A stretch of DNA of 64,000 nucleotides from an uncultured Actinomycetota bacterium (GCA_963810035.1 CAWEMA010000007.1:78317-142316); one strand, 5' to 3'. Positions 7,097 through 29,826 are shown, counted from the first letter of the stretch. Notes: a model not told the origin generated them from the letters alone. Made by a program: numbers and translations.

Positions 7097-7170
7097 TTGT
7101 GGGGGGCCGGACGCAGCGATACGCTCCGCGTGGTATTGCGTATCGCGAAATGAGTTGCTCCATGCGCAAC
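7097..7170 (+). promoter_or_regulatory. metF promoter (TTGTGG-N17-TACGCT) and tandem operator pair
   Basis: -35 at 7097-7102, -10 at 7120-7125; palindromes ATTGCGTATCGCGAAAT (7135-7151) and GTTGCTCCATGCGCAAC (7154-7170). Confidence 0.7.
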
Positions 7171-8016
7171 AAGTCCCACGGCGCCTTCCTGGCCGACATG
7201 CTCTCGTCGGCCCGCTTCGAGGTGCTGCCCACCGGGAGCATCGAGGACAAGGTTCTCGAGCACCTCCCGCTGGAGCGCACGCTCACGGTGACCGCGTCCC
7301 CGACGAAGGGGATCGAGGCCACCCTGGACCTGACCGAGCGGCTCGCCCGCCACGGGTACGCCGTGGTGCCGCACCTCGCCGCACGGTTGGTCAGCGGTCG
7401 CACCGAGCTGTCCGAGATCTGCACGCGCATGCAGGCGGCCGGCGTCCGCACGGTGTTCGTGCCCGGGGGCGACGCCGACCCGCCGGTGGGGGACTACCAC
7501 AGCGCCCTCGACCTGCTCCAGGACCTGACCGCCCTGGGCCGGCCGTTCCCGGAGGTGGGGATCACCGGCTACCCGGAGTCGCACCCCACCATCAGCGACG
7601 ACCTCACGGTGCAGTCGATGTGGGACAAGCGCCGGCACGCGACGCACGTGGTCAGCAACCTGAACTTCGACCCCGAGGCGGTGCGCTCGTGGATCGACCG
7701 GATGCGCAGCCGCGGGATCACGCTGCCGGTGCTGCTGGGCATCCCCGGCCCCATCGACCGCGCGAAGCTGCTGGCGATGGCGACCAAGATCGGGGTCGGT
7801 GACTCGACCCGGTTCCTGGTCAAGCACAAGGGCACCTTCGCGCGGCTGGCCGCGCCGGGCGGGTTCACCGGCGAGCGGTTCCTGGAGCGGTGCGCCCCGG
7901 TGCTGGCCCGACCCGGGGCCCTGGTCACCGGGCTGCACGTCTACACGTTCAACCAGGTCGCCGAGACCGAGGCCTGGCGGCGGGAGTACCTCGACCGGCT
8001 GATGGCCGTGCGCTGA
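7162..8016 (+). CDS. metF: Methylenetetrahydrofolate reductase (short MTHFR family)
   Basis: RFEVLP, VTASP, VVPHLAAR, VFVPGGD, GITGYPESHP, GLHVYTFNQ. Start is ambiguous (7150, 7162 or 7198). Confidence 0.85.
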   Translation: MRNKSHGAFLADMLSSARFEVLPTGSIEDKVLEHLPLERTLTVTASPTKGIEATLDLTERLARHGYAVVPHLAARLVSGRTELSEICTRMQAAGVRTVFVPGGDADPPVGDYHSALDLLQDLTALGRPFPEVGITGYPESHPTISDDLTVQSMWDKRRHATHVVSNLNFDPEAVRSWIDRMRSRGITLPVLLGIPGPIDRAKLLAMATKIGVGDSTRFLVKHKGTFARLAAPGGFTGERFLERCAPVLARPGALVTGLHVYTFNQVAETEAWRREYLDRLMAVR

Positions 8017-8030
8017 GCGGGCCGTCGCGG

Positions 8031-8057
8031 TCAGCGCGGCAGCAGGTCGGCGAGCGC
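8031..8057 (-). other. Orphaned copy of the DUF1638 gene 3' end (encodes ALADLLPR-stop)
   Basis: Reverse complement reads gcg ctc gcc gac ctg ctg ccg cgc tga; 8041-8057 matches 8901-8917 at 16 of 17 nt. Confidence 0.7.
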
Positions 8058-8096
8058 TCACCTGCCGACACCATCGATGAAGAGACAGGGGAGAAC

Positions 8097-8891
8097 ATGG
8101 GGGAGCCCGTGCAGTTGCAGGACCTGACCGGCAGGGTCGCGTTGGTGACCGGTGGCACGAGCGGGATCGGGCTGGCCACCGCCGGCGCCTTCGCCGAGCG
8201 CGGCGCCGACGTGGTGATCTGCGGTCGCAGCGAGACGCGTGGGCAGCAGGCGTTGAAGGAGCTCTGCGAGCCTGCGAACGTCAGCTTCGTCGCCGCCGAC
8301 GTCACCGACGAGCACGACGTGGTCGACCTCGTCCGGGAGGTGGTGGCCCGGCACGGCAGGCTCGACTTCGCCTTCAACAACGCGGCGAACGCCGAGGCAC
8401 TGACCAGCTCCGGTGCCTTCACCGACATGAGTCTCGAGGAGTTCGAAGGCATCGTCCGGACGCTGATGACGAGTGCGTGGCTGTGCATGCGCCACGAGGT
8501 GCCGGCGATGCTCGAGACCGGCGGAGGCGCCATCGTGAACACGTCCTCGGTCGACGCCAAGCTGCTCAGCGCAGGCACCGGCAGCTATGCCGCCAGCAAG
8601 CTCGGGCTCGAGGCGCTCACGGTCACGCTCGCCAAGGAGTTCGCCTCCCGCGGCATCCGGGTCAACGCGGTGCGTCCCGGCGCGATCCTCACTCCGATGC
8701 TCGAGCGCCACCTCGCCGCACCGACGGCGGAGGGACGGAAGGCCAACGTGGAGCGGTACGAGCAGGTGATCTCGATGCGCCGGCTCGGCCACCCGAGCGA
8801 GGTGGCCGCTGCGGTGACGTGGCTCTGCTCGGATGCCGCGTCCTACGTGACGGGTCAGGTGCTGACGGTGGACGGCGCGTTGGGGATGTAG
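8097..8891 (+). CDS. Classical short-chain dehydrogenase/reductase (FabG-like)
   Basis: TGGTSGIG, NNAA, YAASK, RVNAVRPG, GQVLTVDG; RBS GGGGAG. Confidence 0.9.
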   Translation: MGEPVQLQDLTGRVALVTGGTSGIGLATAGAFAERGADVVICGRSETRGQQALKELCEPANVSFVAADVTDEHDVVDLVREVVARHGRLDFAFNNAANAEALTSSGAFTDMSLEEFEGIVRTLMTSAWLCMRHEVPAMLETGGGAIVNTSSVDAKLLSAGTGSYAASKLGLEALTVTLAKEFASRGIRVNAVRPGAILTPMLERHLAAPTAEGRKANVERYEQVISMRRLGHPSEVAAAVTWLCSDAASYVTGQVLTVDGALGM

Positions 8892-9553
8892 CGGTCCCCG
8901 AGCAGGTCGGCCAGCGCGCGCTCGAGACCGGTGTGGCCGGTCTCCACGACGACCAGCGGCAGCCCGATCCGGGCGGCCGCCTGCTCGGCCAGGGCCCGCA
9001 GCTCGTCGTCGGGCTGCTGGGCCAGCCAGACCATCCGCGTGTAGTGCGCGAAGTAGTCGTCGCGCAGCTCCGGGTAGCGGTCCAGGCCCAGCTCCGCGAC
9101 CACGGTGCGGTTGAACGAGCGGACCAGGAAGTCGGTGAGCACGTAGGTGCCGGGCTCTGCCTCGAACATCGCGGCGAGCCGGTCGGCGCCGCCGTACACG
9201 TCGTAGCAGTGCAGGCCGGCGAGCCGGCCGAGACCGCGACGGTCGCAGACCTCGTCCAGGACGCCGTAGGTGCCGCAGTCGGCGTACCCGACCGCGACGG
9301 TGTCGTAGCGCTCCTGCAGGTCGGCCGCGAGCCGGTCCACCTCGCCGGCGATCCGCGCCGGGTGGTTGTGCAGCAGCGGTGGCAGCGGGTGTACGTCGAC
9401 GGGCCAGCCGCGCCGCTCCACCACCTGTGCGCAGGGGGCCGCGATCGCCCCGCACGCGATCAGGGCGACGCGTGCCCGGGGACGCTCAGCCGGGGAAGGC
9501 GAGGAGGTCGACGAACCGGTCGTTGAAGTCGGCGCGGTCGGAGAGCTCGACAT
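8855..9553 (-). CDS. DUF1638 family protein (partner of corrinoid systems)
   Basis: LIACGA, LHNHP, GYADCGTYG, HCYD, TYVLTDF, YFAHY. Start is uncertain; overlaps both neighbours. Confidence 0.8.
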   Translation of the reverse strand: MSSSPTAPTSTTGSSTSSPSPAERPRARVALIACGAIAAPCAQVVERRGWPVDVHPLPPLLHNHPARIAGEVDRLAADLQERYDTVAVGYADCGTYGVLDEVCDRRGLGRLAGLHCYDVYGGADRLAAMFEAEPGTYVLTDFLVRSFNRTVVAELGLDRYPELRDDYFAHYTRMVWLAQQPDDELRALAEQAAARIGLPLVVVETGHTGLERALADLLGDRYIPNAPSTVST

Positions 9554-11426
9554 ACTCCACCTCCTCCAGGAGCGCCAGGGCGCCGGCGCGCTCGCGCACG
9601 CTGAGCAGGCTCATCTTCGCGCCCTCACCGGCGACGTTGCCCGCCGAGACGATCCGGAGCACCGGGATCTTCGGCACCAGGCCGATACGCACGGCGGCCG
9701 CGGGGGAGAGGTAGCTGCCGAAGGAGCCGGCGAGCAGCACCTGCTGCACGTCGGAGTGCTCGAGGCCGAGCTGCTCGAGCAGCAGGGTCCAGCCGGTGGC
9801 GATCGCGCCCTTGGCGAACTGCAGCTCGCGGACGTCTCGCTGGGAGAGGTACACCGACTCCTCGGGCGGCGAGCCGGGCTCCGGACGGTGCAGGACGAAG
9901 ACCCGCTCCTGGCCGATGCTGGTCAGCCGGTCGGCGACCTGCGGGGCGATCTCGAGCGCCCGCTCGTCGGTGACGAACCGGCCGCTGGCGTCGAGCAGGC
10001 CGGCGCGGACCAGCTCGGAGACCACGTCGACGAGGCCGGAGCCGCACAGGCCCTGCGGCTCGACGTCGCCGATCACCTCCAGGTGCACGCCGGCCTCGTC
10101 GATCCGGACGACCTCGACGGCGCCGTCGGCCGCGCGCATGCCGCAGCGGATCGCGCCGCCCTCGAACGCCGGGCCGGCCGGGGCCGCGGTGGACACGATG
10201 GTGTCGCCGTCGCTGAGCACGATCTCGCAGTTGGTGCCGACGTCGATGAACAGCCGGGTGCGCTTGTCGCGGTCCATGCCGGTGGCCAGCATCCCCGAGA
10301 CGATGTCGCCCCCGACGTACGCACCGAGCGCCGGGAACAGCACGGCCCGGGCGCGCGGGTGCAGCGACAGGCCGAGGTCGGAGGCGAGCAGGGTGGGCAG
10401 GGTGGTGGTGGACATGACGAACGGCGCGACGCCGATCGGCTCGGGGTCGATGCCGAGCACCAGTGCGGTCATGGTGGCGTTGCCGGCGAGGGCGACCTCG
10501 TAGACCTCGTGCGGCTCCACGCCCGCCTCGTCGAGCACGTTGCCGGTCAGCTCGGCCAGGGTCGCCTGCGCGAGCTCGCGGAGCCGGTCCGCGGCGAGCG
10601 GGTCCAACATGGTGGCGCTGATCCGGGTGATCACGTCGCCGCCGAACGGTTGCTGCTTGTTGAGCATCGAGGCGACCGCCGCCGGGGTGCCGGTGGCGGT
10701 GTCGACCAGGGTCGCGACCACGGTGGTGGTGCCGAGGTCGAAGGCGATCGCGAACCGCCGCTGCGTGGTGTCCCCGGGCTCCACGTCGATGAGGGCCTCG
10801 TCGACGACGACCGCGGTCACCTTGAAGTCGGCCTGGCGCAGCACGTGCGGCAGCCGGCGCAGCACGTGCAGGTCGGGGGTGAGCTCGAGGTCCTCGATCG
10901 CGTCCTGGACCCGCTGCAGGTCGGTGCGCTGGTCGGACAGGGTCGGCTCGGTGAGCTCGACGTACCGCTTCTGCACCGCCGGGCGCAGGATGACCTGGCG
11001 TCCGACGCCGAGCGTGGCGGCCTTCGGGCGGGTCGTCAGCGGCGGCACCTCGACCTTGAGGTCCTGGGTCGCCTGGGCCAGGCAGGCCAGCCGCCAGCCG
11101 GCGTCGAGCTGCTCGGCGGTGAAGGAGCGTACGTCGAGCCGGTGGATCGGCACGCTGCCGTCGAGGACCTGCACCTTGCACTTCTTGCAGGTGCCGTGCC
11201 CGCCGCAGGTGGAGTCGATCGCGATGCCGTTCCAGCTGGCCGCGTCGAACACGCTGACGCCGGGCGGCACCCGGACGTCGCGGCCCGACGGCGTGAAGGA
11301 CAGCTGCACCCGGCCGGCGCCGTCGTGCGGGGGCAGCCCGGGCCCGTCGGGCCGGTCCAGGAGGCCTTCCCTGCGCAGGTCGTCGACCTCGACCTCGGGC
11401 GGTTGCGTCAGCGGCATCTCGTTCAT
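9486..11426 (-). CDS. ATP-dependent reductive activator of corrinoid proteins (2Fe-2S + ASKHA domain; RamA/RACo-like)
   Basis: CGGHGTCKKC and LAC ferredoxin cysteines; FDLGTTT, GGDVITRI, DVGTNCE, GPAFEG, LCGSGL, LAGSFGS. ATGA overlap with the upstream gene. Confidence 0.92.
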   Translation of the reverse strand: MNEMPLTQPPEVEVDDLRREGLLDRPDGPGLPPHDGAGRVQLSFTPSGRDVRVPPGVSVFDAASWNGIAIDSTCGGHGTCKKCKVQVLDGSVPIHRLDVRSFTAEQLDAGWRLACLAQATQDLKVEVPPLTTRPKAATLGVGRQVILRPAVQKRYVELTEPTLSDQRTDLQRVQDAIEDLELTPDLHVLRRLPHVLRQADFKVTAVVVDEALIDVEPGDTTQRRFAIAFDLGTTTVVATLVDTATGTPAAVASMLNKQQPFGGDVITRISATMLDPLAADRLRELAQATLAELTGNVLDEAGVEPHEVYEVALAGNATMTALVLGIDPEPIGVAPFVMSTTTLPTLLASDLGLSLHPRARAVLFPALGAYVGGDIVSGMLATGMDRDKRTRLFIDVGTNCEIVLSDGDTIVSTAAPAGPAFEGGAIRCGMRAADGAVEVVRIDEAGVHLEVIGDVEPQGLCGSGLVDVVSELVRAGLLDASGRFVTDERALEIAPQVADRLTSIGQERVFVLHRPEPGSPPEESVYLSQRDVRELQFAKGAIATGWTLLLEQLGLEHSDVQQVLLAGSFGSYLSPAAAVRIGLVPKIPVLRIVSAGNVAGEGAKMSLLSVRERAGALALLEEVEYVELSDRADFNDRFVDLLAFPG

Positions 11427-12301
11427 CCTGCGGCGGCAGCCTGCTTCTTGCGGTGAGCGGCGATCCAGCTGCCACCCCACTCGTCGTGCCCGAGCAGCAG
11501 GTCGGCGGCCTTGACCGCGCCGACGATCTGGGGGCTGCGGGTGTCCATGATCGCGCTGGTGAGACCCGCGGTCATCGCCATCGGCAGGAACGTCGCACCG
11601 AGGGTGTGCCGGTCGGGCATCCCGAAGGACACGTTGGACGCGCCGCAGGTCATGTTGAGGCCGTGCACCTCGCGGATCCGGCGCATCGTCTCGAGCGTGG
11701 TGCTGACCACCGAGGTGTCGGCGCCGATCGGCATCGCGAGCGGGTCGATCACGATGTCCTGCTTGGCGATGCCGTACTCCCCGGTCGCGACGTCCACGAT
11801 GTGCTGGACCAGCTCGAGGCGGCGGTCCGCCTCCATCGGGATCTCCTCCGCGTCGTTCGGCAGCGCGATGATCGCCGCGCCGTACTTCTTGACCAGCGGC
11901 AGGATCAGCGCCATCCGATCGTCCTCGGCGGTGACCGAGTTGACCAGCGCCCGGCCCTGGTAGACGGCGAGGCCGGCCTCGAGCGCCTCGACGACCGAGG
12001 AGTCGATGCACACCGGCTTGTCGGTGAGCCCCTGCACGAGGGTGATCGCCTGGGCGAGCAGCTCGGGCTCGTCGGTCATCGGCACGCCCATGTTGACGTC
12101 GAGGACGTCGGCGCCCCCCTCGACCTGCGCGATGACGTCGCGCTCGACCGCCGACAGGTCCCCGGCGCGCAGCTGCTCCTGGAAGATCCGGCGGCCGGTC
12201 GGGTTGATCCGCTCGCCGATCAGGCAGAAGCGGCGACCGTGCCCGATCACCACCTCGGCGGTGGCGGAGCGCAGCGTGGTCTCGAGAAGCTCGGCGCTCA
12301 T
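11423..12301 (-). CDS. Pterin-binding methyltetrahydrofolate:corrinoid methyltransferase
   Basis: IGERINPTGR, LDVNMG, CIDSS, LVNSV, IDPL, GASNVSFGMP, AIMD. Confidence 0.9.
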   Translation of the reverse strand: MSAELLETTLRSATAEVVIGHGRRFCLIGERINPTGRRIFQEQLRAGDLSAVERDVIAQVEGGADVLDVNMGVPMTDEPELLAQAITLVQGLTDKPVCIDSSVVEALEAGLAVYQGRALVNSVTAEDDRMALILPLVKKYGAAIIALPNDAEEIPMEADRRLELVQHIVDVATGEYGIAKQDIVIDPLAMPIGADTSVVSTTLETMRRIREVHGLNMTCGASNVSFGMPDRHTLGATFLPMAMTAGLTSAIMDTRSPQIVGAVKAADLLLGHDEWGGSWIAAHRKKQAAAAG

Positions 12302-12963
12302 GCGGTCACCAGCGCCCGCTTCTTGCCCAGCAGGTCCTTGGCGCGCTTGACGGTCGCGGACGCGTCGGGCGCGTAGCCGTCGGCGCCGACCGCGTCGGCG
12401 TACTCCTGGGTGACCGGTGCGCCACCGACCATCACGATCACCTGGTCGCGCAGCCCGGCCTTCTCGAGCGCGTTCAGGTTGGCCTTGAACATCGGCATGG
12501 TGGTGGTGAGGAACGCCGAGAAGCCGACGATGTCGGGCTGGTGCTCGATGATCTTCTCCACGAACTTCTCCGGTGCGACCTGCACGCCGAGGTCGATCAC
12601 CTCGAAGCCGGCGCCCTCGAGCATGATGTTGACGAGGTTCTTGCCGATGTCGTGCACGTCGCCCTTGACGGTGCCCATCAGGAACTTCCCGACGGTCTCC
12701 ACGCCGGTGTCGGCGAGCAGCGGGCGCAGCACCTCCATGGCGCCGGCCATCGCGCGCCCGGCGATCAGCATCTCCGGGACGAAGAAGTCGCCGCGCTCGA
12801 AGCGCGCCCCGACCTCCTCGAGTGAGGGGATCAGCGCGTCGAACAGCAGGGTCTGCGGTTCCATCTGCATCTCGAGGGCCCGATGGGTCAGGTCGAGCAC
12901 CTCGGGTGCGTTGCCGGTCAGCGTCTCGTCGTAGAGCCGCTGAAGGATCTCCTCGGGTGTCAT
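12298..12963 (-). CDS. Corrinoid (B12-binding) protein
   Basis: Cap domain followed by GTVKGDVHDIGKNLV (DxHxxG), SAFLTTTM, VGGAP, GADGY. Confidence 0.95.
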   Translation of the reverse strand: MTPEEILQRLYDETLTGNAPEVLDLTHRALEMQMEPQTLLFDALIPSLEEVGARFERGDFFVPEMLIAGRAMAGAMEVLRPLLADTGVETVGKFLMGTVKGDVHDIGKNLVNIMLEGAGFEVIDLGVQVAPEKFVEKIIEHQPDIVGFSAFLTTTMPMFKANLNALEKAGLRDQVIVMVGGAPVTQEYADAVGADGYAPDASATVKRAKDLLGKKRALVTA

Positions 12964-13802
12964 GCCGCGCCCTCCTTGGTGGTGCTGTCGGTGCTCCCGG
13001 AGCGGTCAGCGCCTCTGGAGCTTCCGGCCCGGTCAGGGCTCTCGGAGCCGTGCCGGGTCCGGCGGTGAAGCAGCGCCGACAGGGTGTCGGCCTGCTCGAT
13101 CAGGAGCCGACCGATGCGATCGACCCGGTCCTGGAGCCGGGCGGTGGGCCCGGAGATGCCGAGGGCGGCGAAGACGCCGTCCCTGCCCTCGACGGCGGCG
13201 GCGATACCGGTCAGCCCGGTCTCGAGCTCGTCCACGGTGACCGCGAAGCGGCGACGGCGCACGGAGGCCAGCTCGGTGGCCAGCGCGTCCCGGGTGGGCA
13301 CGGTCCGGTCGGTGCGGCGCTCGAGCCGGCCGGCCGGCAGCGGCAGGCGGTCGAAGGCGTAGAGCACCTTGCCCAGCGCGGAGCAGTGCGGGGGTACGTC
13401 GACCTGGTTCCAGTCGCGGGCCGAGAGCAGGTAGGTCGACTCGACCTGCGCGATGTGGACGACGTCCGTGCCGCGCGCGACGCCGAGGTGCACCGTCTCG
13501 CCGGTCTCGGCGCCGACGGTCTCCAGGACCGGACGGGCGAGCCGGGCGATCTGCGGCCAGGGGTCGTGCAGCGCGGCGTGCAGCGCGAACAGCGGCCCGG
13601 CGACGTACCCGCCGCCGGCGTCCCGCTCGATCAGCTCGGTGCGCTCCAGGGCGGCGAGCAGTCGCGAGGTGGTGGAACGGGCCAGGCCGGTCTCGTCGCT
13701 GAGCTCGGTGAAGCTGAGCGGCTCGTCGGCTCGCACCACCAGGTCGACGAGCGCTGCGGCGCGATCGACCGCCTGCGTGCCCGCCGGTGGAGTGTTGCTC
13801 AT
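12960..13802 (-). CDS. IclR-family transcriptional regulator (regulator 1; first gene of the corrinoid operon)
   Basis: QAVDRA HTH, GETVHLG, CSALGK, ELETGLTGIAA, ALGISGP. Confidence 0.92.
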   Translation of the reverse strand: MSNTPPAGTQAVDRAAALVDLVVRADEPLSFTELSDETGLARSTTSRLLAALERTELIERDAGGGYVAGPLFALHAALHDPWPQIARLARPVLETVGAETGETVHLGVARGTDVVHIAQVESTYLLSARDWNQVDVPPHCSALGKVLYAFDRLPLPAGRLERRTDRTVPTRDALATELASVRRRRFAVTVDELETGLTGIAAAVEGRDGVFAALGISGPTARLQDRVDRIGRLLIEQADTLSALLHRRTRHGSESPDRAGSSRGADRSGSTDSTTKEGAA

Positions 13803-13824
13803 CGGGACCTCGTGTTACGTGCCT

Positions 13825-13861
13825 GTTTCATCATATGGAACCGACTTCCACATGATGAGGC
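13825..13861. promoter_or_regulatory. Paired palindromic operator between divergent iclR1 and mttB
   Basis: GTTTCATCATATGGAAC (13825-13841) and CTTCCACATGATGAGGC (13845-13861). TCATCATATGGAA and TTCCACATGATGA form a 12/13 inverted repeat. It covers minus-strand TATGAT (13830-13835) and abuts plus-strand TAGGAT (13862-13867). Confidence 0.7.
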
Positions 13862-13921
13862 TAGGATGCCGACCAGCGCCGGTCAAGGAGAACCGCCCAA
13901 GTTCCTGTGCAGGAGGTCGGA

Positions 13922-15361
13922 ATGTTTCGCAACACGATGCCGAGGTACGAGATCCTCTCCGAGGACGCGATGGCCAAGCTCGACGCGGGCTGGCGTCGGC
14001 TGGTCACCGAGATCGGTGTCGAGTTCGACAGTGAGCGCGCGCTCGAGCTGTTCCGGCAGGCCGGCCAGCGGGTCGAGGACAAGACCGTCTACCTCGACCC
14101 CGAGTTCGTCCTCGCGCAGGTGGCCAAGGCCCCGCGCGAGTTCGACGTCCAGGCCCGCAACCCCGAGCACAACATCCACATCGGCGGCGACGCGATGGCG
14201 TTCGGCGCGGTCTACGGGCCGCCGTTCGTGCGCGAGGGTGACGTCCGCCGCGACGCGACCATGAACGACTTCGAGCGGTTCACCAAGCTCGCCCAGACCT
14301 TCCCGGTGCTCGACTCGGCGGGCGGTGTGATCTGCGAGCCCAACGACACACCGCTCGACTCGCGGCACCTCGACATGACCTACGCGCTGCAGACGCTGAC
14401 CGACAAGGTCTACATGGGCAACGTGGTCTCCGGCGTGAACGCCCGCGACACCATCGCGATGGGGGAGATCCTGTTCGGTGGCCGCGAGGCGATCGAGCAG
14501 ACCCCGGTCTCGATCTCGTTGATCAACTGCAACTCGCCGCTGCACTGGGACGGGCGGATGCTCGAGTCGCTCTTCGAGTACACCCTGGCCGGGCAGCCGT
14601 GCGTGGTGACGCCGTTCATCCTGATGGGCGCGATGTCCCCGGTGACGATCCCGGCTGCGCTCGTGCAGCAGATGGCCGAGGCGCTCTCCGGCATCGCGCT
14701 CACGCAGCTGGTCCGACCCGGTGCGCCGGTCATCTTCGGGTCGTTCCTGTCCAACATCGACATGCAGTCCGGGTCGCCGACGTTCGGCACGCCGGAGTCG
14801 GGCATCGGCCTGCTGTGCACCGGCCAGATCGCCCGGCACTTCGGCCTTCCGTTCCGTTCCGGCGGCGGGCTCACCTCGTCGCAGGTCGCGGACGCCCAGG
14901 CGGGCTACGAGGCCCTGATGACGATGCTGCCGACGTTCCTCGCCGGGGCCAACTGGGTGATGCACTCGGCCGGCTGGCTCGAGGGCGGCCTGGTCGCGGG
15001 CTTCGAGAAGTTCATCGTCGACGTGGAGATCCTGCAGATGCTGCGGGCGGAGTTCACCCCGCTCGAGATCGACGAGGACTCGCTCGCGTTCGGCGCGCAC
15101 CTGGAGGTCGGCCACGGCGGGCACTTCCTCGGGGCGATGCACACGATGGAGCGCTTCCGCACCTGCTTCTACCGCCCGATGCTCTCCTCCTCGGACAACT
15201 ACGAGCGGTGGATGCGCAACGGCGGCCTCGACGCCAACGCCCGCGCGACGAAGATCTACCAGGCCAAGCTCGAGGAGTATGTCGCCCCGCCGCTCGACGA
15301 CGCCGTGCGGGCCGAGCTGCAGGAGTACGTCGTACGCCGCCGCCGCGAGCTGGGCGACTGA
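13922..15361 (+). CDS. MttB-superfamily non-pyrrolysine methyltransferase (MtgB-like; quaternary-amine substrate likely)
   Basis: NSPLHWD, GAMSPVT, DMQSGSPTFGTPE, RSGGGLTSSQVADAQAGYE, HSAGWLEGG, VGHGGHFLG; RBS AGGAGG; no in-frame TAG. Confidence 0.9.
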   Translation: MFRNTMPRYEILSEDAMAKLDAGWRRLVTEIGVEFDSERALELFRQAGQRVEDKTVYLDPEFVLAQVAKAPREFDVQARNPEHNIHIGGDAMAFGAVYGPPFVREGDVRRDATMNDFERFTKLAQTFPVLDSAGGVICEPNDTPLDSRHLDMTYALQTLTDKVYMGNVVSGVNARDTIAMGEILFGGREAIEQTPVSISLINCNSPLHWDGRMLESLFEYTLAGQPCVVTPFILMGAMSPVTIPAALVQQMAEALSGIALTQLVRPGAPVIFGSFLSNIDMQSGSPTFGTPESGIGLLCTGQIARHFGLPFRSGGGLTSSQVADAQAGYEALMTMLPTFLAGANWVMHSAGWLEGGLVAGFEKFIVDVEILQMLRAEFTPLEIDEDSLAFGAHLEVGHGGHFLGAMHTMERFRTCFYRPMLSSSDNYERWMRNGGLDANARATKIYQAKLEEYVAPPLDDAVRAELQEYVVRRRRELGD

Positions 15362-15366
15362 CCGGG

Positions 15367-16248
15367 CTAGCGGAACACGACCGTCTTGTGACCGTTGAGC
15401 AGCACCCGGGACTCGGAGTGCCAGCGCACGGCCCGGGACAGCACCTGGCTCTCCACGTCGCGGCCGGCGGCGGCGAGCTCGGCGGCGTCGTACGTGTGGT
15501 CCACCCGCATCACGTCCTGCTCGATGATCGGGCCCTCGTCGAGGTCGGCGGTCACGTAGTGCGCGGTGGCGCCGACCAGCTTCACGCCCCGGTCGAACGC
15601 CTGGTGGTAGGGCTTGGCGCCCTTGAAGCTGGGCAGGAACGAGTGGTGGATGTTGATCGCCCGCCCGGCCAGCGCCCGGCAGGTGTCGTCGGAGAGCACC
15701 TGCATGTAGCGCGCGAGCACCACCAGGTCGATGCGCTCGGACTCGACGAGCGCGAGCATCTGCGCCTCGGCCTCCGCCTTCGTGTCGGCCGTGACCGGGA
15801 TGTGGTGGTAGGGCACGCCGTAGGACTTCGTCAGCGCCTCGCAGTCGGGGTGGTTCGAGACCACGCCGACCACGTCGATCTGCAGCGAGCCGCTGCTCCA
15901 CCGGAACAGCAGGTCGTTGAGGCAGTGGCTGAACTTCGAGACCAGGATCAGCGTGCGGTACGGCGTGGTCGCCTGCCAGAGCTCCCAGGCCATGCCCCAC
16001 CGCTCGGCCACCGGGGCGAACGCCGCGCGCAGCGACTCCAGGGCGTCGGTCGAAGCCGGCCCCTCGACGGCGAACTTCACCCGCATGAAGAACCGGTCCT
16101 CGGCGAGGTCGCCGAACTGCTGGCTCTCCAGGATGTTGCCGCCCTGCTCGACGAGCAGCCCGCTGACGGCGTGCACGATGCCGGCGCGGTCGGGGCAGAC
16201 GAGGGTGAGGACGTACGTCGCCGGGGCGGCGGCCTGCGGATCGGTCAT
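15367..16248 (-). CDS. purU: Formyltetrahydrofolate deformylase
   Basis: ACT domain CPDRAGIV, VSKFSHCLNDLL, LARYMQVLS, INIHHSFLPSFKGAKPYHQA, GPIIEQDV. Confidence 0.95.
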   Translation of the reverse strand: MTDPQAAAPATYVLTLVCPDRAGIVHAVSGLLVEQGGNILESQQFGDLAEDRFFMRVKFAVEGPASTDALESLRAAFAPVAERWGMAWELWQATTPYRTLILVSKFSHCLNDLLFRWSSGSLQIDVVGVVSNHPDCEALTKSYGVPYHHIPVTADTKAEAEAQMLALVESERIDLVVLARYMQVLSDDTCRALAGRAINIHHSFLPSFKGAKPYHQAFDRGVKLVGATAHYVTADLDEGPIIEQDVMRVDHTYDAAELAAAGRDVESQVLSRAVRWHSESRVLLNGHKTVVFR

Positions 16249-16271
16249 GGCGTTCCTTGGACTCGTGTGCG

Positions 16272-16307
16272 GTTGCGTCAACGGAAACACATTCTGTGAT
16301 ACGCAAC
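16272..16307. promoter_or_regulatory. Tandem operator pair between divergent purU and iclR2
   Basis: GTTGCGTCAACGGAAAC (16272-16288) and ATTCTGTGATACGCAAC (16291-16307), 19-bp period. Confidence 0.7.
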
Positions 16308-16329
16308 ACGACTGCGCTACCGTCAGGTC

Positions 16330-17127
16330 ATGGGGAACGGCAGGGAGAGTGGTGCGATGACCCCCGGCGACACTCCGGCCTCTGTCCAGTCGGTGGACCG
16401 GGCCCTCACCATCCTCGGCATCCTCGCGCGGCTCGGTGAGGCCGGAGTCACCGAGATCGCCGGCGAGCTCGGCGTCCACAAGAGCACCGCGTTCCGGCTG
16501 GTCGCGACGCTGGAGTCCCACGGCATGGTCGAGCAGAACGACGAGCGCGGCAAGTACCGCCTCGGCGTGGGCGTGCTCCGGCTCGCCGGCGCGACCACCG
16601 CCCGGCTCGACGTGGTGCAGGAGGCCCGGCCGATCTGCCGCAAGCTCGCCGCCGACTCGGGGGAGACCGTCAACATCGCGGTGCTCTCCGACCGGTCCGC
16701 GCTCTACCTCGACCAGGTCGCCGGCCAGTCCGCGCTGCAGTCCCACAACTGGGTCGGCCAGCACATCCCGCTGCACGCCACGTCCAACGGCAAGGTGCTG
16801 CTCAGCGGTCTGTCGCCCGACGAGATCGACAACCGGCTGCCCCGGCTGCCCTCCTACACCGCGGAGACGGTCACCACCAAGGCCAAGCTGCGCCGCGAGC
16901 TCACCGAGGTGCGCGAGCAGGGGTACGCCGTCGCGGTGGACGAGCTCGAGGTCGGGCTGACCGCTATCGCCGCACCCATCCGGAACGCGCACGGGGACGT
17001 GATCGCCTCGCTCAGCGTGTCCGGGCCGACGTTCCGGCTGGCGGAGCCGCGGGTGAAGGAGCTGATCCCGGTGGTGCAGGATGCGGCTGACGAGGTCTCG
17101 CGTCGACTTGGTTTCGGAACGGCGTGA
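16330..17127 (+). CDS. IclR-family transcriptional regulator (regulator 2)
   Basis: VQSVDRAL, VHKSTAFRL, GETVNIAV, HATSNGKVLL, ELEVGLTAIAAP. TACCGT (16318-16323) lies 6 nt before ATG 16330, suggesting a leaderless start; alternative start 16357. Confidence 0.92.
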   Translation: MGNGRESGAMTPGDTPASVQSVDRALTILGILARLGEAGVTEIAGELGVHKSTAFRLVATLESHGMVEQNDERGKYRLGVGVLRLAGATTARLDVVQEARPICRKLAADSGETVNIAVLSDRSALYLDQVAGQSALQSHNWVGQHIPLHATSNGKVLLSGLSPDEIDNRLPRLPSYTAETVTTKAKLRRELTEVREQGYAVAVDELEVGLTAIAAPIRNAHGDVIASLSVSGPTFRLAEPRVKELIPVVQDAADEVSRRLGFGTA

Positions 17128-17131
17128 GCGC

Positions 17132-17196
17132 TTGACGGAGAAACCCTGACCCGCAATCCTGTTGCGTGTAGCACACGGAGTTGCGACATACGCAAC
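17132..17196 (+). promoter_or_regulatory. betB operon promoter (TTGACG-N17-AATCCT) and tandem operator pair
   Basis: GTTGCGTGTAGCACACG (17161-17177) and GTTGCGACATACGCAAC (17180-17196). Confidence 0.75.
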
Positions 17197-17220
17197 GCTT
17201 CCGGCTGATCGGACATTCCA

Positions 17221-18705
17221 GTGTCACAGCTCTACATCGGGGGGCGATGGGAGACGGCTCGCGAGGGCGAGCGTCGGGAGATCCGCTGCCCTGCGGACGG
17301 CTCGTTGGTGGCCGACATCGACGAGGCCGGCCCCGAGGACACCCGCGCGGCGATCGGCGCCGCCCGCGAGGCGTTCGACGAGGGGACCTGGCCCGGCGGT
17401 TCGGCGCTCGAGCGGGGCGCCCTGCTGCACCGGGTCGCGGACCTGCTCGAGCGTGACAAGGACGCCGTCGCGCGTGCGGAGTCCCTCGACACGGGCAAGC
17501 GGCTCGTCGAGAGCGAGTACGACGTCGACGACGTGGTCGGGGTCTTCCGGCACTACGGCAACGTCGCGGCCGAGGACAAGGGTCGCCTCGTCGACACCGG
17601 GCGCGCCGACGTGGTCAGCCGGGTGGTGCACGAGCCGATCGGGGTCTGCGGGCTGATCACGCCGTGGAACTACCCGCTGCTGCAGACCGCCTGGAAGGTC
17701 GCGCCGTGCCTGGCCGCCGGCAACACCTTCGTGCTCAAGCCGAGCGAGCTGACCCCGCACACCGCGATCCACCTGATGCGCATCCTCGAGGAGGTCGGGG
17801 TCCCTGCCGGGGTCGCGAACCTCGTGCTCGGGGCCGGGCCGCGTGCCGGTGCGCTGCTCAGCGAGGACCCCCGCGTGGACCTGGTCTCGTTCACCGGTGG
17901 CCTCGCCACCGGCAAGCGGATCATGGCGTCCGCGTCCGAGACGGTGAAGAAGATCGCCCTCGAGCTCGGCGGCAAGAACCCCAACGTGGTGTTCGCCGAC
18001 GCCGACCTCGAGACCGCGCTGGACTTCGCGCTCACCGCCGTGTTCCTGCACTCCGGCCAGGTGTGCTCCGCGGGTGCCCGGCTGGTCGTCGAGGAGTCCG
18101 TCCACGACGAGTTCGTGGACGAGGTGGTGCGCCGCGCCGAGCAGATCCGCATCGGCGGGCCGTTCGACGAGAAGGCGGAGACCGGTCCGCTGATCTCCGC
18201 GCAGCACCGCGACAAGGTCGAGGAGTACGTCGCCCGCGGGATCGCCGAGGGCGCGACGCTGCGCTGCGGCGGGAGGCGTCCCGACGCCCCGGAGCTGGCC
18301 GACGGGTTCTACTACCTGCCCACGCTGCTCGACGGCTGCGACGGCACCATGTCCGTCGTGCACGACGAGTCGTTCGGCCCGGTGCTGACCGTCGAGACGT
18401 TCCGCGACGAGGACGAGGCGGTGCGGATCGCCAACGACAGCATCTACGGCCTCGCCGGAGCGGTGTGGACCCAGAACGCCGGACGGGCCGAGCGGGTCGC
18501 GGCCCGGATGCGGATGGGCACGGTCTGGATCAACGACTACCACCCCTACGTCCCGCAGGCGGAGTGGGGCGGCTACAAGCAGTCCGGCGTCGGCCGGGAG
18601 CTCGGTGCCGCGGGGCTCGACGAGTACCGCGAGACCAAGCACGTATGGCACAACATCCGGCCTGAGCCGCAACGCTGGTTCGACGGTTCTCCTAAGAGTC
18701 AGTGA
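17221..18705 (+). CDS. betB: Betaine aldehyde dehydrogenase
   Basis: [54 protein letters not shown]; directly upstream of betA. Confidence 0.88.
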
Positions 18706-18719
18706 CGAAGGGCGAGGAC

Positions 18720-20417
18720 ATGAGCACGTACGACTACGTCATCGTCGGCGGAGGCTCCGCCGGATGTGCCCTCGCCAACCGGCTCAGTGCCGACCCGGGC
18801 ACCAGCGTGCTGGTGCTGGAGGCCGGGCGCTCGGACTACCGGATCGACCCGTTCATCCATATGCCGGCCGCGCTGCCCTACCCGATCGGCAACCGGTTCT
18901 ACGACTGGAAGTACGAGTCCGAGCCGGAGCCGTTCATGGACGGCCGCAAGGTCTACCACGCGCGCGGCAAGGTGCTCGGCGGCTCCAGCAGCATCAACGG
19001 GATGATCTTCCAGCGCGGCAACCCGCTGGACTTCGAGCGCTGGGCCGCCGACGAGGGCATGAGCTCGTGGGACTACGCGCACTGCCTGCCCTACTTCAAG
19101 CGGATGGAGACCTGCCTGGCCGGCGCCGACGAGTGGCGCGGGGGCAGTGGACCCCTGCTCATGGAGCGTGGACCGGCCGTCGGACCGCTGTTCGGCGCGT
19201 TCTTCGAGGCCGTGCAGCAGGCCGGCTACCCGCTGACCACCGACGTCAACGGCTACCGGCAGGAGGGCTTCGCGCCCTTCGACCGCAACGTCTACCGGGG
19301 GCGCCGGCTGAGCGCGGCACGGGCCTACCTGCATCCGGTCCACGACCGCAAGAACCTCAGCGTCGAGACGCTGGCGATGGTGACCGGCCTCGTGGTCCAG
19401 GGCAACCGGGTCACCGGCGTCGACTACCACCGGGCCGGACGCGGGTCGCACCGCGCCCTGGCCACGGAGGTCATCCTCTGCGGGGGCGCGATCAACAGCC
19501 CCCAGCTGCTGCTGCTCGCCGGCATCGGCCCGAAGGCCGACCTCGAGAAGCTCGGCATCGACGTGGTGACGGACCTGCCGGGCGTGGGCAGCAACCTGCA
19601 GGACCACCTCGAGGTCTACATCCAGTACGCCTCCAAGCAGCCGGTCTCGATCGGGCCGTGGCTCAAGCACCGGCACAAGCCGCGCATCGGCGCCGAGTGG
19701 CTGCTCCTACGCCGCGGCGTGGGGGCCTCGAACCACTTCGAGGCCGGGGGGTTCGTCCGCAGCAACGACCGGGTGGACTACCCGAACCTGATGTTCCACT
19801 TCCTGCCGATCGCGATCCGGTACGACGGCTCGCGGCCGGCTGCCGAGCACGGGTACCAGGTGCACATCGGGCCGATGTACTCCGACGTACGGGGGAGCGT
19901 GACGCTGAAGTCGCGGGACCCCTACGAGCACCCGGCGCTGCGGTTCAACTACCTCTCGACCGAGAACGACCGCCGGGAGTGGATCGAGATGGTCCGCGCC
20001 GCCCGCGACATCCTCAACCAGCCCGCGTTCGCCGTGTTCAACGCCGGGGAGATCTCGCCCGGACCGTCCGTCGAGACCGACCAGGAGATCCTCGACTGGG
20101 TCGCCGCCGACGCCGAGACCGCCCTGCACCCGTCCTGCACGGCCCGCATGGGCGTGGACGACATGTCAGTCCTCGACCCGCAGACGCTGCGGGTGCACGG
20201 GGTGGACGGGTTGCGCGTCGTGGACGCGTCCTCGATGCCGTACATCACCAACGGCAACATCTACGCCCCGGTGATGATGCTCGCCGAGAAGGCCGCCGAC
20301 CTGATCCTGGGCAACACCCCGTTGCCGCCCTCGGACGCGCCGTTCTACCGCTATCGGGACAACAGCCCGATCTACCCGCCGACCCCGGCGGCGACCAGCC
20401 CAGGAGGCCACCGATGA
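18720..20417 (+). CDS. betA: Choline dehydrogenase (GMC oxidoreductase)
   Basis: [52 protein letters not shown]. Confidence 0.93.
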
Positions 20418-21487
20418 CACAGACCGAGGAGCAGTCGGGGTTCACCGCGACCGCCGGCGAGGCAGCCGTGTCCGTGAAGGACCTCTGGAAGATCTTCGGG
20501 GAGAAGGCCGACAAGATCATCGGTACGCCGGACGCCGACCTGTCCCGCGCGGACCTGCAGAAGAAGACCGGCTGCGTCACCGCGGTCAAGGACGTGTCGT
20601 TCGACGTGGCGCCCGGTGAGGTGTTCGTCGTGATGGGGCTCTCCGGGTCCGGCAAGTCCACCCTGGTCCGCCTGCTCACCCGGCTCATCGAGCCCACCCA
20701 CGGCACGATCCGGATGGGCAGCGAGGAGATCACCTCCGCCAACGAGCACCAGCTCCGCGAGCTGCGCCGCAAGCACGTGGCGATGGTGTTCCAGCACTTC
20801 GGCCTCCTCCCGCACCGCAAGGTGATCGACAACATCGCGTTCGGCCTCGAGGTGCGGGGCGTCGGCAAGGCCGACCGGCGCAACCGGGCCCAGGAGATGG
20901 TCGACCTGGTCGGCCTGTCCGGCTACGAGGACAGCTACCCCGACCAGCTCTCCGGCGGCATGCAGCAGCGGGTCGGCCTGGCCCGCGCGCTCGCCGCCGA
21001 TCCGAAGGTGCTGATGTTCGACGAGCCGTTCTCGGCGCTCGACCCGCTGATCCGCCGGGACATGCAGAACGAGGTGATCCGGCTGCACGAGGAGGTCGGG
21101 AAGACCATGGTCTTCATCACCCACGACCTCGCCGAGGCACTCAAGCTCGGTGACCGGATCCTGATCATGCGGGACGGCGAGATCGTCCAGATCGGCCGGC
21201 CCGACGAGGTGGTCGGCGCGCCCGCCGACGACTACGTCAAGGACTTCGTGAGCGAGGTGCCCAAGTCGCACGTGCTCACGCTCCGGTGGGTGATGCGCCC
21301 TCCGGAGCCGGGCGAGGCCGAGGGCGGTCCGGTGCTCCAGGCGGACCGGATCGTGCGCGAGGCCGCCCGCGAGGTGCTCGAGGCCAAGGGGCCGGTGCGG
21401 GTGTTCGAGGGTGACGAGTTCGTCGGCATCGTCGACGACGAGGACATCCTGCGCGTGGTCGTGGCGGAGGAGGAGTCGGCGCCGTGA
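20414..21487 (+). CDS. Glycine betaine/choline ABC importer ATPase (ProV/OpuAA-like)
   Basis: [47 protein letters not shown]. Confidence 0.93.
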
Positions 21488-23481
21488 CCGCCGTACAGGA
21501 ACGACCCAAGGTCAAGGAGGAGCAGCCGTACGTCGACACCGCCCCCAACCGGCGCACGGGGCTGTGGGTCGGTGTCGTGCTGGTGGTGTGGATCGTCGGG
21601 TGGGCGCTGCTCAAGGGGCGCAACACCCTGGCGCTGGGCTTCCAGGACCAGACCGACTTCCACCGCTGGCTCAACGGGCTGCGTGACGACATCCAGCTCG
21701 CCGCCAGCCGCGGCAACTGGTTCTTCCATGGTGTCATCGGCACCATCTCGGACTTCTTCAACTGGCTGGTCACCCAGCTCCAGCAGCTGGTCAGCGTCCC
21801 CGCCTTCCCCCGGCCGGTCCCGGAGATCGGCTGGCTCGGCGTCGTCGCGCTGCTGATCTGGCTGGCCTACGCCGTGGCCGGGTGGCGCTCCGCGTTCATG
21901 ATGGGCACGACCGTCCTCGTCTTCGGGTTCCTGGGCTACTGGGAGGAGGGCATGGACACGCTGATCATCACCACGCTCGCGGTCCTCATCTGTGTGGTGG
22001 TCGGCCTTCCGCTCGGCATCTCCATGGCACGCCGCAAACCCGTGTCGGCGGGCGTGACGCCCGTCCTGGACGTGATGCAGACGATGCCGTCGTTCGCCTA
22101 CCTCACGCCCCTCGCGCTGATCTTCGGCATCGGCCCGGCGGCGGCGATCGTGGTCACCCTCATCTACGCGCTGCCCCCGCTGGTGCGGATCACCGAGCAC
22201 GGCATCCACTCGGTCCCCGAAGGCACCATCGAGGCCGCCAGCTCGCTCGGTGTCAGCCAACGGCAGCTGCTGCGCAAGGTGCAGCTCCCGATGGCCCGCC
22301 GCACGATCGTGGTCGGCATCAACCAGTGCACGATGGCTGCCCTCTCGATGGCGACCATCGCCGTCCTGGTCAACGGCCCCGGTCTCGGCAAGCCGGTCCA
22401 GGCGGCGCTGCAGAACCTCGACGTCGGCACCGCGGCGGTGGCCGGCCTCGCGATCGTGCTGGTCGCGATCATGCTCGACCGGACCACCACCGCCGCCAGC
22501 GAGCGGGTGGAGCGGCAGACGCGCAAGGGCCACCTGTCCGAGAAGCAGCGCCGGTACGTCGTGCTCGGCGGCTTCGTCGGTGCCCTGGTCGCGGTCTACC
22601 TGTCCCGCACCTACCTCGGGCTGGCCCAGTTCTCCGAGAGCCTGAACGTCGGACCCCAGCTGGCGAAGGGCCTCAACGGCTTCACGGACTCCACCGTCAA
22701 CGTCGTCGACGGTGCGACCAACGCCTTCAAGAACGCGGTGAGCTACGGCTTCCTGAACCCGTTGCAGTCGCTGCTGGCCGAGACGCCCTGGTGGCTGATG
22801 GGTGCGGTACTGCTCGCCCTCGCCTACGTGCTCGGCGGCTGGCGCCCCGCCGCCGTGACCCTGGTCTGTGAGGGCGTGATCCTCGGCACCGGCCTGTGGC
22901 ACGACTCGATGGTCACGCTCACCATGACCATCGTCGCCACCGTGCTCGTGATGGTGGTGGCGGTGGCGCTCGGGGTCTCGATGGGCCGAAGGCACCGGGT
23001 CGACTCGATCGTCCGGCCGGTCCTGGACGCGTTCCAGACGATCCCGCCGTTCGTCTACCTCGTCCCGGCGCTGGCGCTGTTCGCCAGCAGCCGCTTCACC
23101 GCGATCGTCGCGGCGATGGCCTACGCCATCCCGATCGCGACCAAGCTCGTGGCCGACGGCATCCGGGGCGTGTCGCCCACGACGGTCGAGGCGGCGGAGT
23201 CGGCGGGCATCACCGCCCGGCAGATGATCACCAAGGTGCAGCTGCCGATGTCGCGCGAGGCGCTCGTGCTGGCCACCAACCAGGGGCTGCTGTACGTCCT
23301 TTCGATGGTCGTCATCGGCGGTCTCGTCGGCGCCGGCAGCCTGGGCTACATCGTGGTCTCCGGGTTCTCGCAGTCGCAGCTGTTCGGCAAGGGGCTGGCC
23401 GCCGGCATCGCGATCACCGCGCTCGGCGTGATGATCGACCGCACCATGAGGTACGCCGCCGCGCGCTACGGGAGGTCCTAG
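21484..23481 (+). CDS. ABC importer permease with two fused ProW-like domains
   Basis: Two repeats: [13 protein letters not shown] and [13 protein letters not shown], each with an EAA-like loop ([16 protein letters not shown]). Confidence 0.9.
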
Positions 23482-23531
23482 CGCACACGACTTCTTGGCT
23501 CAGGGGAGCCGAGGTGATGAAGGGATGACGC

Positions 23532-24497
23532 ATGGCACGAGGAACTCGCCGGCTCCGGCTGGCCTGTCTCGCCGCTACCGCTGCGCTGGTACTGGCGGGG
23601 TGCGGCGGGGGCAACATCAAGGAGTCCAACACCTCTGCCGCGGGGGGCAAGGACTGCGGCGACCTGAACGTCGCGGTGAACCCGTGGACGGGCTACGTGG
23701 CCAACGCGCACGTCATCGGGTACGTCGCCCAGACCAAGCTCGGCTGCAAGGTGAACTACCAGGACGTGAAGGAGGAGGTCGGCTGGCAGGGCATGTCCAA
23801 CGGCACGATCGACACCATCGTCGAGAACTGGGGTCACCCTGACCTGGTCAAGAAGTACATCGACCAGCAGAAGACCGTCCAGGACGCCGGCCTGACCGGT
23901 AACGACGGGATCATCGGCTGGTACGTGCCGCCGTGGATGGCGAAGAAGTACCCCGACATCACCGACTGGAAGAACCTGAACAAGTACGCCTCGATGTTCA
24001 AGACCTCCGAGTCCGGCGGCAAGGGGCAGCTCCTCGACGGCGACCCGTCGTACGTCACCAACGACGAGGCACTGGTGAAGAACCTGAAGCTGAACTACAA
24101 GGTCGTCACCGGTGGCAGCGAGGCCGCCCTGATCCAGAGCTTCCGGACCGCTGAGAAGAACCACAAGGCGCTCCTGGCCTACTTCTATGAGCCGCAGTGG
24201 TTCTTCTCGGAGGTGAAGCTGGTCAAGGTCGACCTGCCGCCGTACAAGCCGGGTTGTGACTCCGACCCGGCGAAGGTCGCCTGCGACTACCCGCCGTACA
24301 AGCTGAACAAGCTGATCGCCAAGAAGTTCGCCGACTCCGGCTCCCCGGCGGTCGGGCTGGTCAAGAAGTTCAACTGGACCAACGACGACCAGAACCTGGT
24401 GTCCACCGACATCGCCGAGAAGGGCATGAGCCCCGACGACGCGGCGAAGAAGTGGGTCGAGGCCAACCCGGACAAGGTCAACGCCTGGCTGAACTAG
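23532..24497 (+). CDS. Quaternary-amine ABC substrate-binding lipoprotein
   Basis: Lipobox LAGC; NPWTG, ENW, GWYVP, YFYEPQW (candidate aromatic-cage residues). Confidence 0.9.
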   Translation: MARGTRRLRLACLAATAALVLAGCGGGNIKESNTSAAGGKDCGDLNVAVNPWTGYVANAHVIGYVAQTKLGCKVNYQDVKEEVGWQGMSNGTIDTIVENWGHPDLVKKYIDQQKTVQDAGLTGNDGIIGWYVPPWMAKKYPDITDWKNLNKYASMFKTSESGGKGQLLDGDPSYVTNDEALVKNLKLNYKVVTGGSEAALIQSFRTAEKNHKALLAYFYEPQWFFSEVKLVKVDLPPYKPGCDSDPAKVACDYPPYKLNKLIAKKFADSGSPAVGLVKKFNWTNDDQNLVSTDIAEKGMSPDDAAKKWVEANPDKVNAWLN

Positions 24498-24534
24498 CCG
24501 TCCGGACCATGACGATCTCCCTCGTCGTGCCTGG

Positions 24535-24608
24535 TTGACAGGCGCGGCGGGGGAGTCGCATGCTGAAGGCCTGTCTCATATAGCGCACCACAGTGCGTAA
24601 TACGCAAC
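24535..24608 (+). promoter_or_regulatory. Promoter (TTGACA-N18-CATGCT) and tandem operator pair upstream of the GcvT-family oxidoreductase
   Basis: GTCTCATATAGCGCACC (24573-24589) and AGTGCGTAATACGCAAC (24592-24608). Confidence 0.75.
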
Positions 24609-29819: not shown

Positions 29820-29826
29820 CGAACAC

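Follow-up and report, generated by a model that had tools for sequence, protein, structure and literature searches.

In proteobacteria, betIBA/betT are controlled by BetI, a regulator of the TetR family, and in Pseudomonas the catabolism of glycine betaine and dimethylglycine (DMG) is controlled by GbdR, which belongs to the AraC family. A different type of control is represented by TtgV and BlcR, tetrameric IclR-family repressors that act on double operators. Here we describe a stretch of 64,000 nucleotides from an uncultured Actinomycetota bacterium (GCA_963810035.1, CAWEMA010000007.1:78317-142316), referred to as a whole as the window, in which a predicted choline catabolic island carries four 36-bp elements, each composed of two 17-bp boxes with the consensus GTTGCG-N5-CGCAAC. 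They lie before a metF-like gene, between the divergent genes purU and iclR2, before betB, and before a dimethylglycine dehydrogenase/oxidase-like gene (DMGDH). A previous interpretation made from this DNA alone, the sequence-only reading, had proposed that the IclR-family protein IclR2 represses all four units, and our analysis indicates, with considerable confidence, that the four elements are operators of IclR2.

Tandem sites of this kind were compiled by Suvorova and Gelfand (2021; PMC8222616), who described a GTT-11-AAC subgroup of the group 1 IclR motifs, with the 17-bp palindrome GTTYCRY-W3-RYGRAAC, and found that in 94 orthologous IclR groups the palindromes stand in tandem at distances of 18-22 nt, most often 19-21 nt, an arrangement that they linked to tetramer binding by citing Lu et al. 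(2010). One group in their Supplementary Table 1, 'ROP_14880', includes regulators from Rhodococcus, Mycobacterium, Geodermatophilus, Streptomyces, Arthrobacter, Streptosporangium and others (PMC8222616). Within this group, the helix-turn-helix (HTH) domain has the sequence ...ELGVHKSTAFRL...; the motif predicted for the group is TGTTGCGCA-T-TGCGCAACA, and many of its sites are spaced by exactly 19 nt, for instance those of SAV6953 at -47/-28 and MMAR_4420 at -59/-40 (PMC8222616). In the accessible part of the supplement, rows for BetT, FolD, PurU, SoxD/G, MetF, ETF and ProVX belong to some IclR regulog, and that part does not allow them to be assigned to 'ROP_14880' (PMC8222616). As for the demethylation of glycine betaine, MtgBCD was described in 2025 as a cobalamin-dependent glycine betaine demethylase that occurs with RamA and DUF1638 in aerobic marine bacteria (PMC12478193).

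All eight 17-mers listed in the sequence-only reading were found where it had placed them (Table 1). In order along the window, they match the consensus at 9, 11, 10, 9, 9, 12, 8 and 10 of the 12 defined positions. The gene-proximal (right) box is strong and nearly invariant, whereas the promoter-proximal (left) box is weak. Symmetry follows the same division: right boxes have six of eight symmetric pairs in three units and four of eight at purU/iclR2, and left boxes are poor palindromes with two to five of eight, usually keeping only the outer half-site. The period is 19 bp in all four pairs, as had been claimed, but given the left boxes, the accompanying description of palindrome pairs is an idealization. 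A third in-phase box was sought beside each window pair, and none was found.

The number of pairs far exceeds the chance expectation. Requiring at least 8/12 matches in each box and at least 18/24 in sum, we scanned spacings from 8 to 36 bp in the window and obtained four pairs at 19 bp and none at any other spacing; 400 first-order Markov simulations gave a mean of 0.095 pairs per 64 kb and a maximum of two. Because these thresholds were chosen after the sites were known, the weightier test is a 36-bp matrix trained on the sites of orthologous loci only, which scores the four window sites at 40-46 bits and finds nothing at or above 12 bits in the rest of the 64 kb on both strands. A matrix scan of the type that the sequence-only reading had recommended, run on the window, thus returns the four claimed sites and no others. 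Single boxes with three or fewer mismatches are not enriched (35 found, 57 expected from shuffled sequence), and for this reason the argument rests on pairs: the signal is the combination of pairing, promoter position and conservation, not the single boxes. The nonamer ATACGCAAC is enriched, with 11 matches having at most one mismatch against 3.4 expected, and its three exact copies all fall at the claimed sites. That single boxes are no commoner than in shuffled sequence, together with thresholds set after the fact, would be the grounds for regarding the pairs as chance matches picked selectively from a GC-rich sequence. We consider such an origin extremely improbable and exclude it on the evidence of the simulations, the independently trained matrix and the preservation of the pairs, whose spacing peaks sharply at 19 bp, at the orthologous promoters of 80 genomes.

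These 80 loci were obtained by searching a species-representative genome collection with IclR2; they belong to the Nocardioidaceae, encode orthologues 71-94% identical to IclR2 and conserve synteny. Their 1.46 Mb contain 209 pairs at 19 bp and 27 at 20 bp, and every other spacing from 8 to 44 bp gives 0-10 pairs, so the 19-bp period, exact in the window, is typical rather than absolute among relatives. Matrix scores across the loci are bimodal, with very few matches between 15 and 28 bits, and the strong-box consensus of 203 distinct sites is GTTGCG..ATaCGCAAC. Pairs are located upstream of betB (62), iclR2 (57), DMGDH (35, not counting about 20 whose gene is truncated at the end of the locus) and metF (about 28), as well as upstream of a BCCT transporter gene in some genomes. 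They track these genes through rearrangement, including loci in which DMGDH directly follows iclR2, loci with a BCCT gene inserted between iclR2 and betB, and betA-first operons. The metF-type operator is represented by 28 distinct orthologous sites and is also conserved in an alignment of 34 metF upstream regions. Phylogenetic footprinting, another check recommended in the sequence-only reading, points in the same direction: in motif-blind MAFFT alignments of orthologous upstream regions, the blocks that emerge as conserved are the boxes and the -35 hexamers. The observation is therefore confirmed as real and well supported, and the regulon is readable directly from the sequence.

The position of the operators relative to the promoters is equally consistent. 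The metF operator starts at 7135, after the putative -10 TACGCT, and the betB operator starts at 17161, immediately past the inferred -10. In orthologues, the operator begins 29-45 nt past the first base of the -35, which places its start level with the -10 or just beyond it, with distances of 29-30 or 43-45 nt for betB and 35-39 nt for DMGDH; it spans from the -10 to about +38. Of the sigma-70-like promoters that had been claimed before three of the pairs, the -35 hexamers are conserved in orthologues, but the -10 elements, of actinobacterial type, are weak assignments because no promoter between 7000 and 25000 passes a strict scan of the E. coli type. The claim that the fourth pair overlaps the -35 region of iclR2 agrees with the footprint of that upstream region, in which the operator at 16272-16307 overlaps the -35 position; the centre of this operator lies about 40-60 nt upstream of the purU ATG.

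Two of the start codons are closely associated with these elements. The right box of metF reads cATGCGCAAC in all metF orthologues, compared with cATACGCAAC at the other promoters, and the longer open reading frame starts at GTG 7099 and ATG 7150 are not conserved; because the former sequence is universal and ATG 7150 is not conserved, we place the metF start codon at ATG 7162, inside the right box. Upstream of iclR2, a conserved -10, TACCGT (16318-16323), ends 6 nt before a conserved ATG at 16330, which looks like a leaderless-type arrangement. The gene call of the collection itself starts at ATG 16357 (a protein of 256 amino acids), with a Shine-Dalgarno-like GGGAGAG upstream, and either ATG may be the start. 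In a subset of Nocardioidaceae relatives, the iclR2 start codon lies inside a right box of the form GTTGCGCCATGrGCAAC, and the period there is mostly 20 bp.

Repression is consistent with operators that extend from the -10 into early transcribed sequence. Activators are nevertheless known in the IclR family, and a PobR/PcaU-like activating or dual function of IclR2 at some or all four promoters would be compatible with the iclR2/purU operator, which lies upstream of or over a -35 and could serve to activate one of the two divergent genes. Such a function is quite improbable, since the operators of betB, DMGDH and metF start level with the -10 or just beyond it and extend over the transcription start, the classical repressor position, which is kept in orthologues; the metF operator covers the start codon as well. 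The same location raises the question of whether the palindromes act in RNA, as 5'-leader hairpins of the metF, betB and DMGDH mRNAs that affect attenuation, stability or translation, given that the element is transcribed in three units, that each box has the potential to fold into a stem of 6 bp closed by a loop of 5 nt, and that the metF start codon falls within the right box. We rejected this explanation, which is very improbable, because substitutions in the boxes are not compensatory: C occupies position 23 in 49 of the 203 sites, while the partner position, 33, is C in all 203, and the outer CGCAAC is invariant in sequence rather than conserved as a pair. Furthermore, the iclR2/purU element precedes the inferred iclR2 start, and the fixed 19-bp period and the GTT-11-AAC box match a known class of IclR DNA motif.

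We now turn to the protein that is predicted to bind these sites. IclR2 belongs to the IclR family by its PF09339 (HTH_IclR, 6.2e-17) and PF01614 (IclR_C, 8.9e-47) domains, and its best solved structural relatives are 1MKM, 3R4K, AllR, IclR, TtgV and BlcR. In nearly all 80 loci, iclR2 has boxes on either side, including those without the iclR1/mttB cluster within 10 kb, and the recognition helix HKSTAFRL is invariant in 80/80 orthologues, which at the level of sequence parallels the nearly invariant CGCAAC. A different IclR regulator with the same or a similar helix could instead bind the operators, either a paralogue elsewhere in the host genome or IclR1, the product of the second IclR gene of the island, in which case IclR2 would be just one target or would bind other sites. 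A homologue from Nonomuraea gerenzanensis (L081 5729-12726) illustrates that paralogues can share specificity: it is 54% identical to IclR2, has an identical HKSTAFRL helix and a single box, GTTGCGCCATGGGCAAC, over its own start codon, and yet the genes that precede it are those of malate synthase, glcDEF-like proteins and a further IclR paralogue, a setting of glycolate/glyoxylate rather than choline metabolism. For the island, however, the flanking of iclR2 by boxes even where the IclR1/MttB cluster is absent within 10 kb, the different operator between iclR1 and mttB described below, and an IclR1 helix, (A/P)(R/K)ST(T/A/V)SR(L/M)L, that differs from that of IclR2 at four of nine positions make another IclR regulator an unlikely candidate. 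Comparative evidence, namely the conservation in 80 loci, the flanking boxes, the invariant helix and the separate IclR1 operator, thus supports IclR2 as the predicted regulator and the four units as one regulon, as had been proposed.

The protein search with IclR2 listed close relatives only, and more distant homologues were drawn from a plasmid collection. On replicon 2 of Arthrobacter sp. StoSoilB13 (L082), a gene for an IclR2 homologue of 49-51% identity is followed by a BCCT transporter gene. In the region 12811-12974, the promoter of this transporter gene shows a TTGACA -35 with a tandem pair of 19-bp period behind it, and the matrix matches nothing else in 44 kb of that replicon. About 100 bp upstream of this pair, we also observed a second, weaker pair of CGCAAC/TGCAAC half-sites, 19 bp apart. 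The nearby purU-DMG oxidase-FTCD-folD-metF-formate dehydrogenase operon of Arthrobacter has a different upstream element and no GTTGCG pair, and for that reason the wide regulon is not general outside the Nocardioidaceae.

Several points weigh against IclR2 as the repressor of all four units and should be considered together. Apart from the poor symmetry of the left boxes, the lack of enrichment of single boxes, the weak -10 elements and the negative result of the strict promoter scan, the purU promoter could not be located. To these are added the existence of activators in the family, the Nonomuraea case, which implies that a paralogue elsewhere in the host genome could recognize the same boxes, and the absence of RNA runs among the sequencing runs that match the window, which are soil metagenome DNA only.

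A second tandem operator, separate from the four above, lies between iclR1 and mttB with a 20-bp period. Its orthologue consensus, GTTCCA-N5-TGGAAC, is strongly conserved in 64 orthologous intergenic regions, and it adjoins TAGGAT, a -10-like hexamer. Both the matrix scan and the alignment revealed no GTTGCG boxes in this intergenic region, and the operator is outside the IclR2 regulon; it is probably the IclR1 operator for mttB and for the divergent iclR1-corrinoid operon. The genes at 8855-15361 form a complete betaine demethylase-type set, with a non-Pyl MttB-family methyltransferase, a B12-binding protein, a pterin-binding methyltransferase, a RACo/RamA-type activase and DUF1638. This cobalamin-dependent demethylase-type set adjoins genes of aerobic choline and DMG oxidation in a Nocardioidaceae genome. 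The assignment of purU to the regulon holds in clades where purU is divergent to iclR2, but not in about 15 loci (L027, L034, L036, L038, L041, L046, L047, L052, L060, L062, L068, L071, L072, L075 and L076), in which purU lies directly 3' of mttB, on the same strand and not divergent to iclR2. From this gene order, purU appears to belong to the IclR1 regulon in some clades and to the IclR2 regulon in others.

In the mechanism that we propose, a dimer of IclR2 dimers would occupy both boxes cooperatively. At the promoters of metF, betB and DMGDH it would cover the -10/+1 region, and at that of iclR2 itself the -35 region. Bound in this way, it would repress metF with the short-chain dehydrogenase/reductase (SDR) gene, purU together with iclR2, betB-betA-opuA, and DMGDH-etfBA. 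A metabolite of the pathway, with choline, glycine betaine and dimethylglycine as candidates, would bind the IclR_C domain and release the repressor. The step from glycine betaine to DMG would fall outside the IclR2 regulon, being catalysed by the MttB-type corrinoid methyltransferase system under a separate operator of like architecture that we assign to IclR1.

A broader model can be put forward tentatively, although we do not yet favour it. According to this model, two IclR paralogues with one architecture (17-bp boxes 19-20 bp apart, with GTTGCG and GTTCCA half-sites, respectively) would divide a single hybrid pathway of aerobic soil actinomycetes. IclR2 would respond to a methylated glycine or a quaternary amine and govern the uptake and oxidation of choline, the oxidation of DMG and one-carbon (C1)-folate recycling, and IclR1 would separately gate the MttB-type demethylase. 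If true, these would be the first regulators assigned to a cobalamin-dependent betaine demethylase system, and the IclR family would gain quaternary amines as a new class of effectors.

The features of the region are listed in Table 1. The window has a G+C content of 71%, and its closest relatives are Nocardioidaceae genomes and soil metagenome-assembled genomes. According to the gene map, which rests on Pfam assignments, the island encodes predicted functions for taking up choline and oxidizing it to glycine betaine, for oxidizing DMG, and for the release or oxidation of C1 units (metF, purU). The betB-betA-opuA products would convert choline to glycine betaine and form a betaine/choline-type ABC transporter (OpuA-type), and the junctions of this operon are mostly overlapping or tight. 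All genes from 7.1 to 28.9 kb have Pfam assignments, and the only regulators among them are the two IclR genes, with no TetR or AraC regulator gene in the island. On its left the island borders dnaE/DUF3352, and on its right a region that contains a glyoxalase, DUF222-HNH, ybaK and hisD.

Immediately beyond the catabolic island, before the ybaK/hisD region is reached, lies a DUF222/HNH endonuclease gene; members of this family have often been described as mobile in actinomycetes. A 23-bp repeat, GGCTGGTYGAGCCTGTCGARACC, for which the chance expectation is none, occurs in three intergenic copies just right of the island, and two of them flank a small hydrophobic open reading frame. The repeat may be an element like those termed REP (repetitive extragenic palindromic) or a remnant of the island boundary.

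Table 1. Genes, promoters, operators and repeats of the catabolic island and its right border, in window coordinates; bit scores are those of the 36-bp matrix
Feature	Position	Strand	Details
metF operator	boxes 7135-7151 (weak left) and 7154-7170 (strong right)	+	19-bp period; 46.5 bits
Shared purU/iclR2 operator	boxes 16272-16288 and 16291-16307	+	43.2 bits
betB operator	boxes 17161-17177 and 17180-17196	+	right box matches 12/12; 44.0 bits
DMGDH operator	24573-24608	+	40.2 bits
Tandem operator between iclR1 and mttB	13825-13841 (GTTTCATCATATGGAAC) and 13845-13861 (CTTCCACATGATGAGGC)		20-bp period
Putative metF promoter	-35 TTGTGG 7097-7102; -10 TACGCT 7120-7125	+	17-nt spacer; conserved blocks in MAFFT alignment
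betB promoter	-35 TTGACG 17132-17137	+	conserved in orthologue alignments
DMGDH promoter	-35 TTGACA 24535-24540; -10 CATGCT 24559-24564	+	-35 conserved in alignments
metF-like gene	7162-8016	+	Pfam MTHFR
SDR gene, after the metF-like gene	ends 8891	+	Pfam adh_short
Operon of iclR1, B12-binding protein, pterin-binding methyltransferase, RACo/RamA-type activase and DUF1638	13802 down to 8855	-	
MttB-family methyltransferase gene (mttB)	13907-15361	+	without internal stop
purU (formyltetrahydrofolate deformylase)	15367-16248	-	divergent from iclR2; Pfam Formyl_trans_N and ACT
iclR2	16330-17127	+	Pfam HTH_IclR and IclR_C
betB-betA-opuAA-opuAB-opuAC operon	17221-24497	+	Pfam Aldedh, GMC_oxred, ABC_tran, BPD_transp_1, OpuAC
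DMGDH, then etfB and etfA	24630-28872	+	Pfam DAO, FAO_M, GCV_T; ETF, ETF_alpha
23-bp repeat, three copies	28895-28917; 29303-29325; 31753-31775	minus for 31753-31775	intergenic
Small hydrophobic open reading frame	28950-29282		flanked by two repeat copies
DUF222/HNH endonuclease gene	29797-31152		

This analysis offers a testable regulatory map of choline, glycine betaine and dimethylglycine catabolism in the Nocardioidaceae, which are common soil bacteria. The map ties 12 genes to one predicted repressor, with the cobalamin-dependent demethylation step wired separately, and the pair of operator and regulator could serve as a biosensor part for methylated amines. The understanding of how IclR regulators work is unchanged, as the tandem 19-bp layout and the box sequence had been predicted before for related regulators. 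In the open-access literature that we searched, no paper was found on a regulator of choline/betaine/DMG catabolism in actinomycetes, and nothing direct came to light on an IclR-family regulator of this catabolism.

The comparison with described systems defines what is shared and what is specific to this locus. The boxes fit the GTT-11-AAC subgroup at the outer GTT/AAC, at C in position 5 and at R in position 6, with G rather than Y at position 4, as in the TGTTGCGCA group of the same study (PMC8222616). Their periods, 19 bp in the four window sites and 19 or 20 bp in the pairs of the related loci, fall within the 18-22-nt range of family tandems, and because such tandem sites are the family norm, the finding is less novel than first thought. 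IclR2 shares its DNA-binding domain and motif with the 'ROP_14880' group: its HTH is identical to that of the group member Gobs_2890 at 45 of 54 positions, the recognition helix GVHKSTAFRL is the same, the box TGTTGCGCA-T-TGCGCAACA corresponds to GTTGCG-N5-CGCAAC, and in both cases sites lie upstream of the regulator's own gene (PMC8222616). The group differs in having no Nocardioidaceae member in Supplementary Table 1 and in being a computational prediction only. Its content is not generally that of choline, betaine and DMG, as the Nonomuraea homologue in its glycolate/malate synthase locus shows, and the presence of homologues 49-54% identical in differing contexts suggests that it may include paralogues.

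With the tetrameric IclR repressors (TtgV, PDB 2XRO; BlcR; E. coli IclR; AllR), IclR2 has in common the protein family and an arrangement of two palindromic sub-sites about two helical turns apart, which in those proteins are read by a dimer of dimers and for which IclR2 offers the geometry only; their effectors and regulons are others, namely solvent efflux, gamma-butyrolactone and glyoxylate. Similarly, the island encodes the same gene set as the MtgBCD/RamA/DUF1638 system, although the enzymes described there are from Rhodobacterales, with no regulator named, and here they are found in the Nocardioidaceae with two IclR regulators flanking them (PMC12478193).

Compared with BetI and GbdR, the same pathway would be under local, metabolite-responsive transcriptional control, with a regulator gene beside betB/betA, but the regulator family and the operator are different. 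Instead of the TetR gene that adjoins betB/betA in BetI systems, the island has iclR2, and the view in the sequence-only reading that an IclR regulator replaces BetI agrees with the gene content, while the replacement itself stands as an analogy. A further difference is that one predicted regulon also spans DMG oxidation and C1-folate genes, and betaine demethylation has its own IclR paralogue. What was already known is the operator architecture, which is the family norm, and the pairing of box and helix, which had been predicted computationally for other actinobacterial families. What is new is the Nocardioidaceae instance of this pairing, the content of the regulon, which comprises choline uptake and oxidation, DMG oxidation with ETF, metF and purU, and the predicted division of the pathway between the two IclR regulators of the island, the second of which would control the cobalamin-dependent demethylase.

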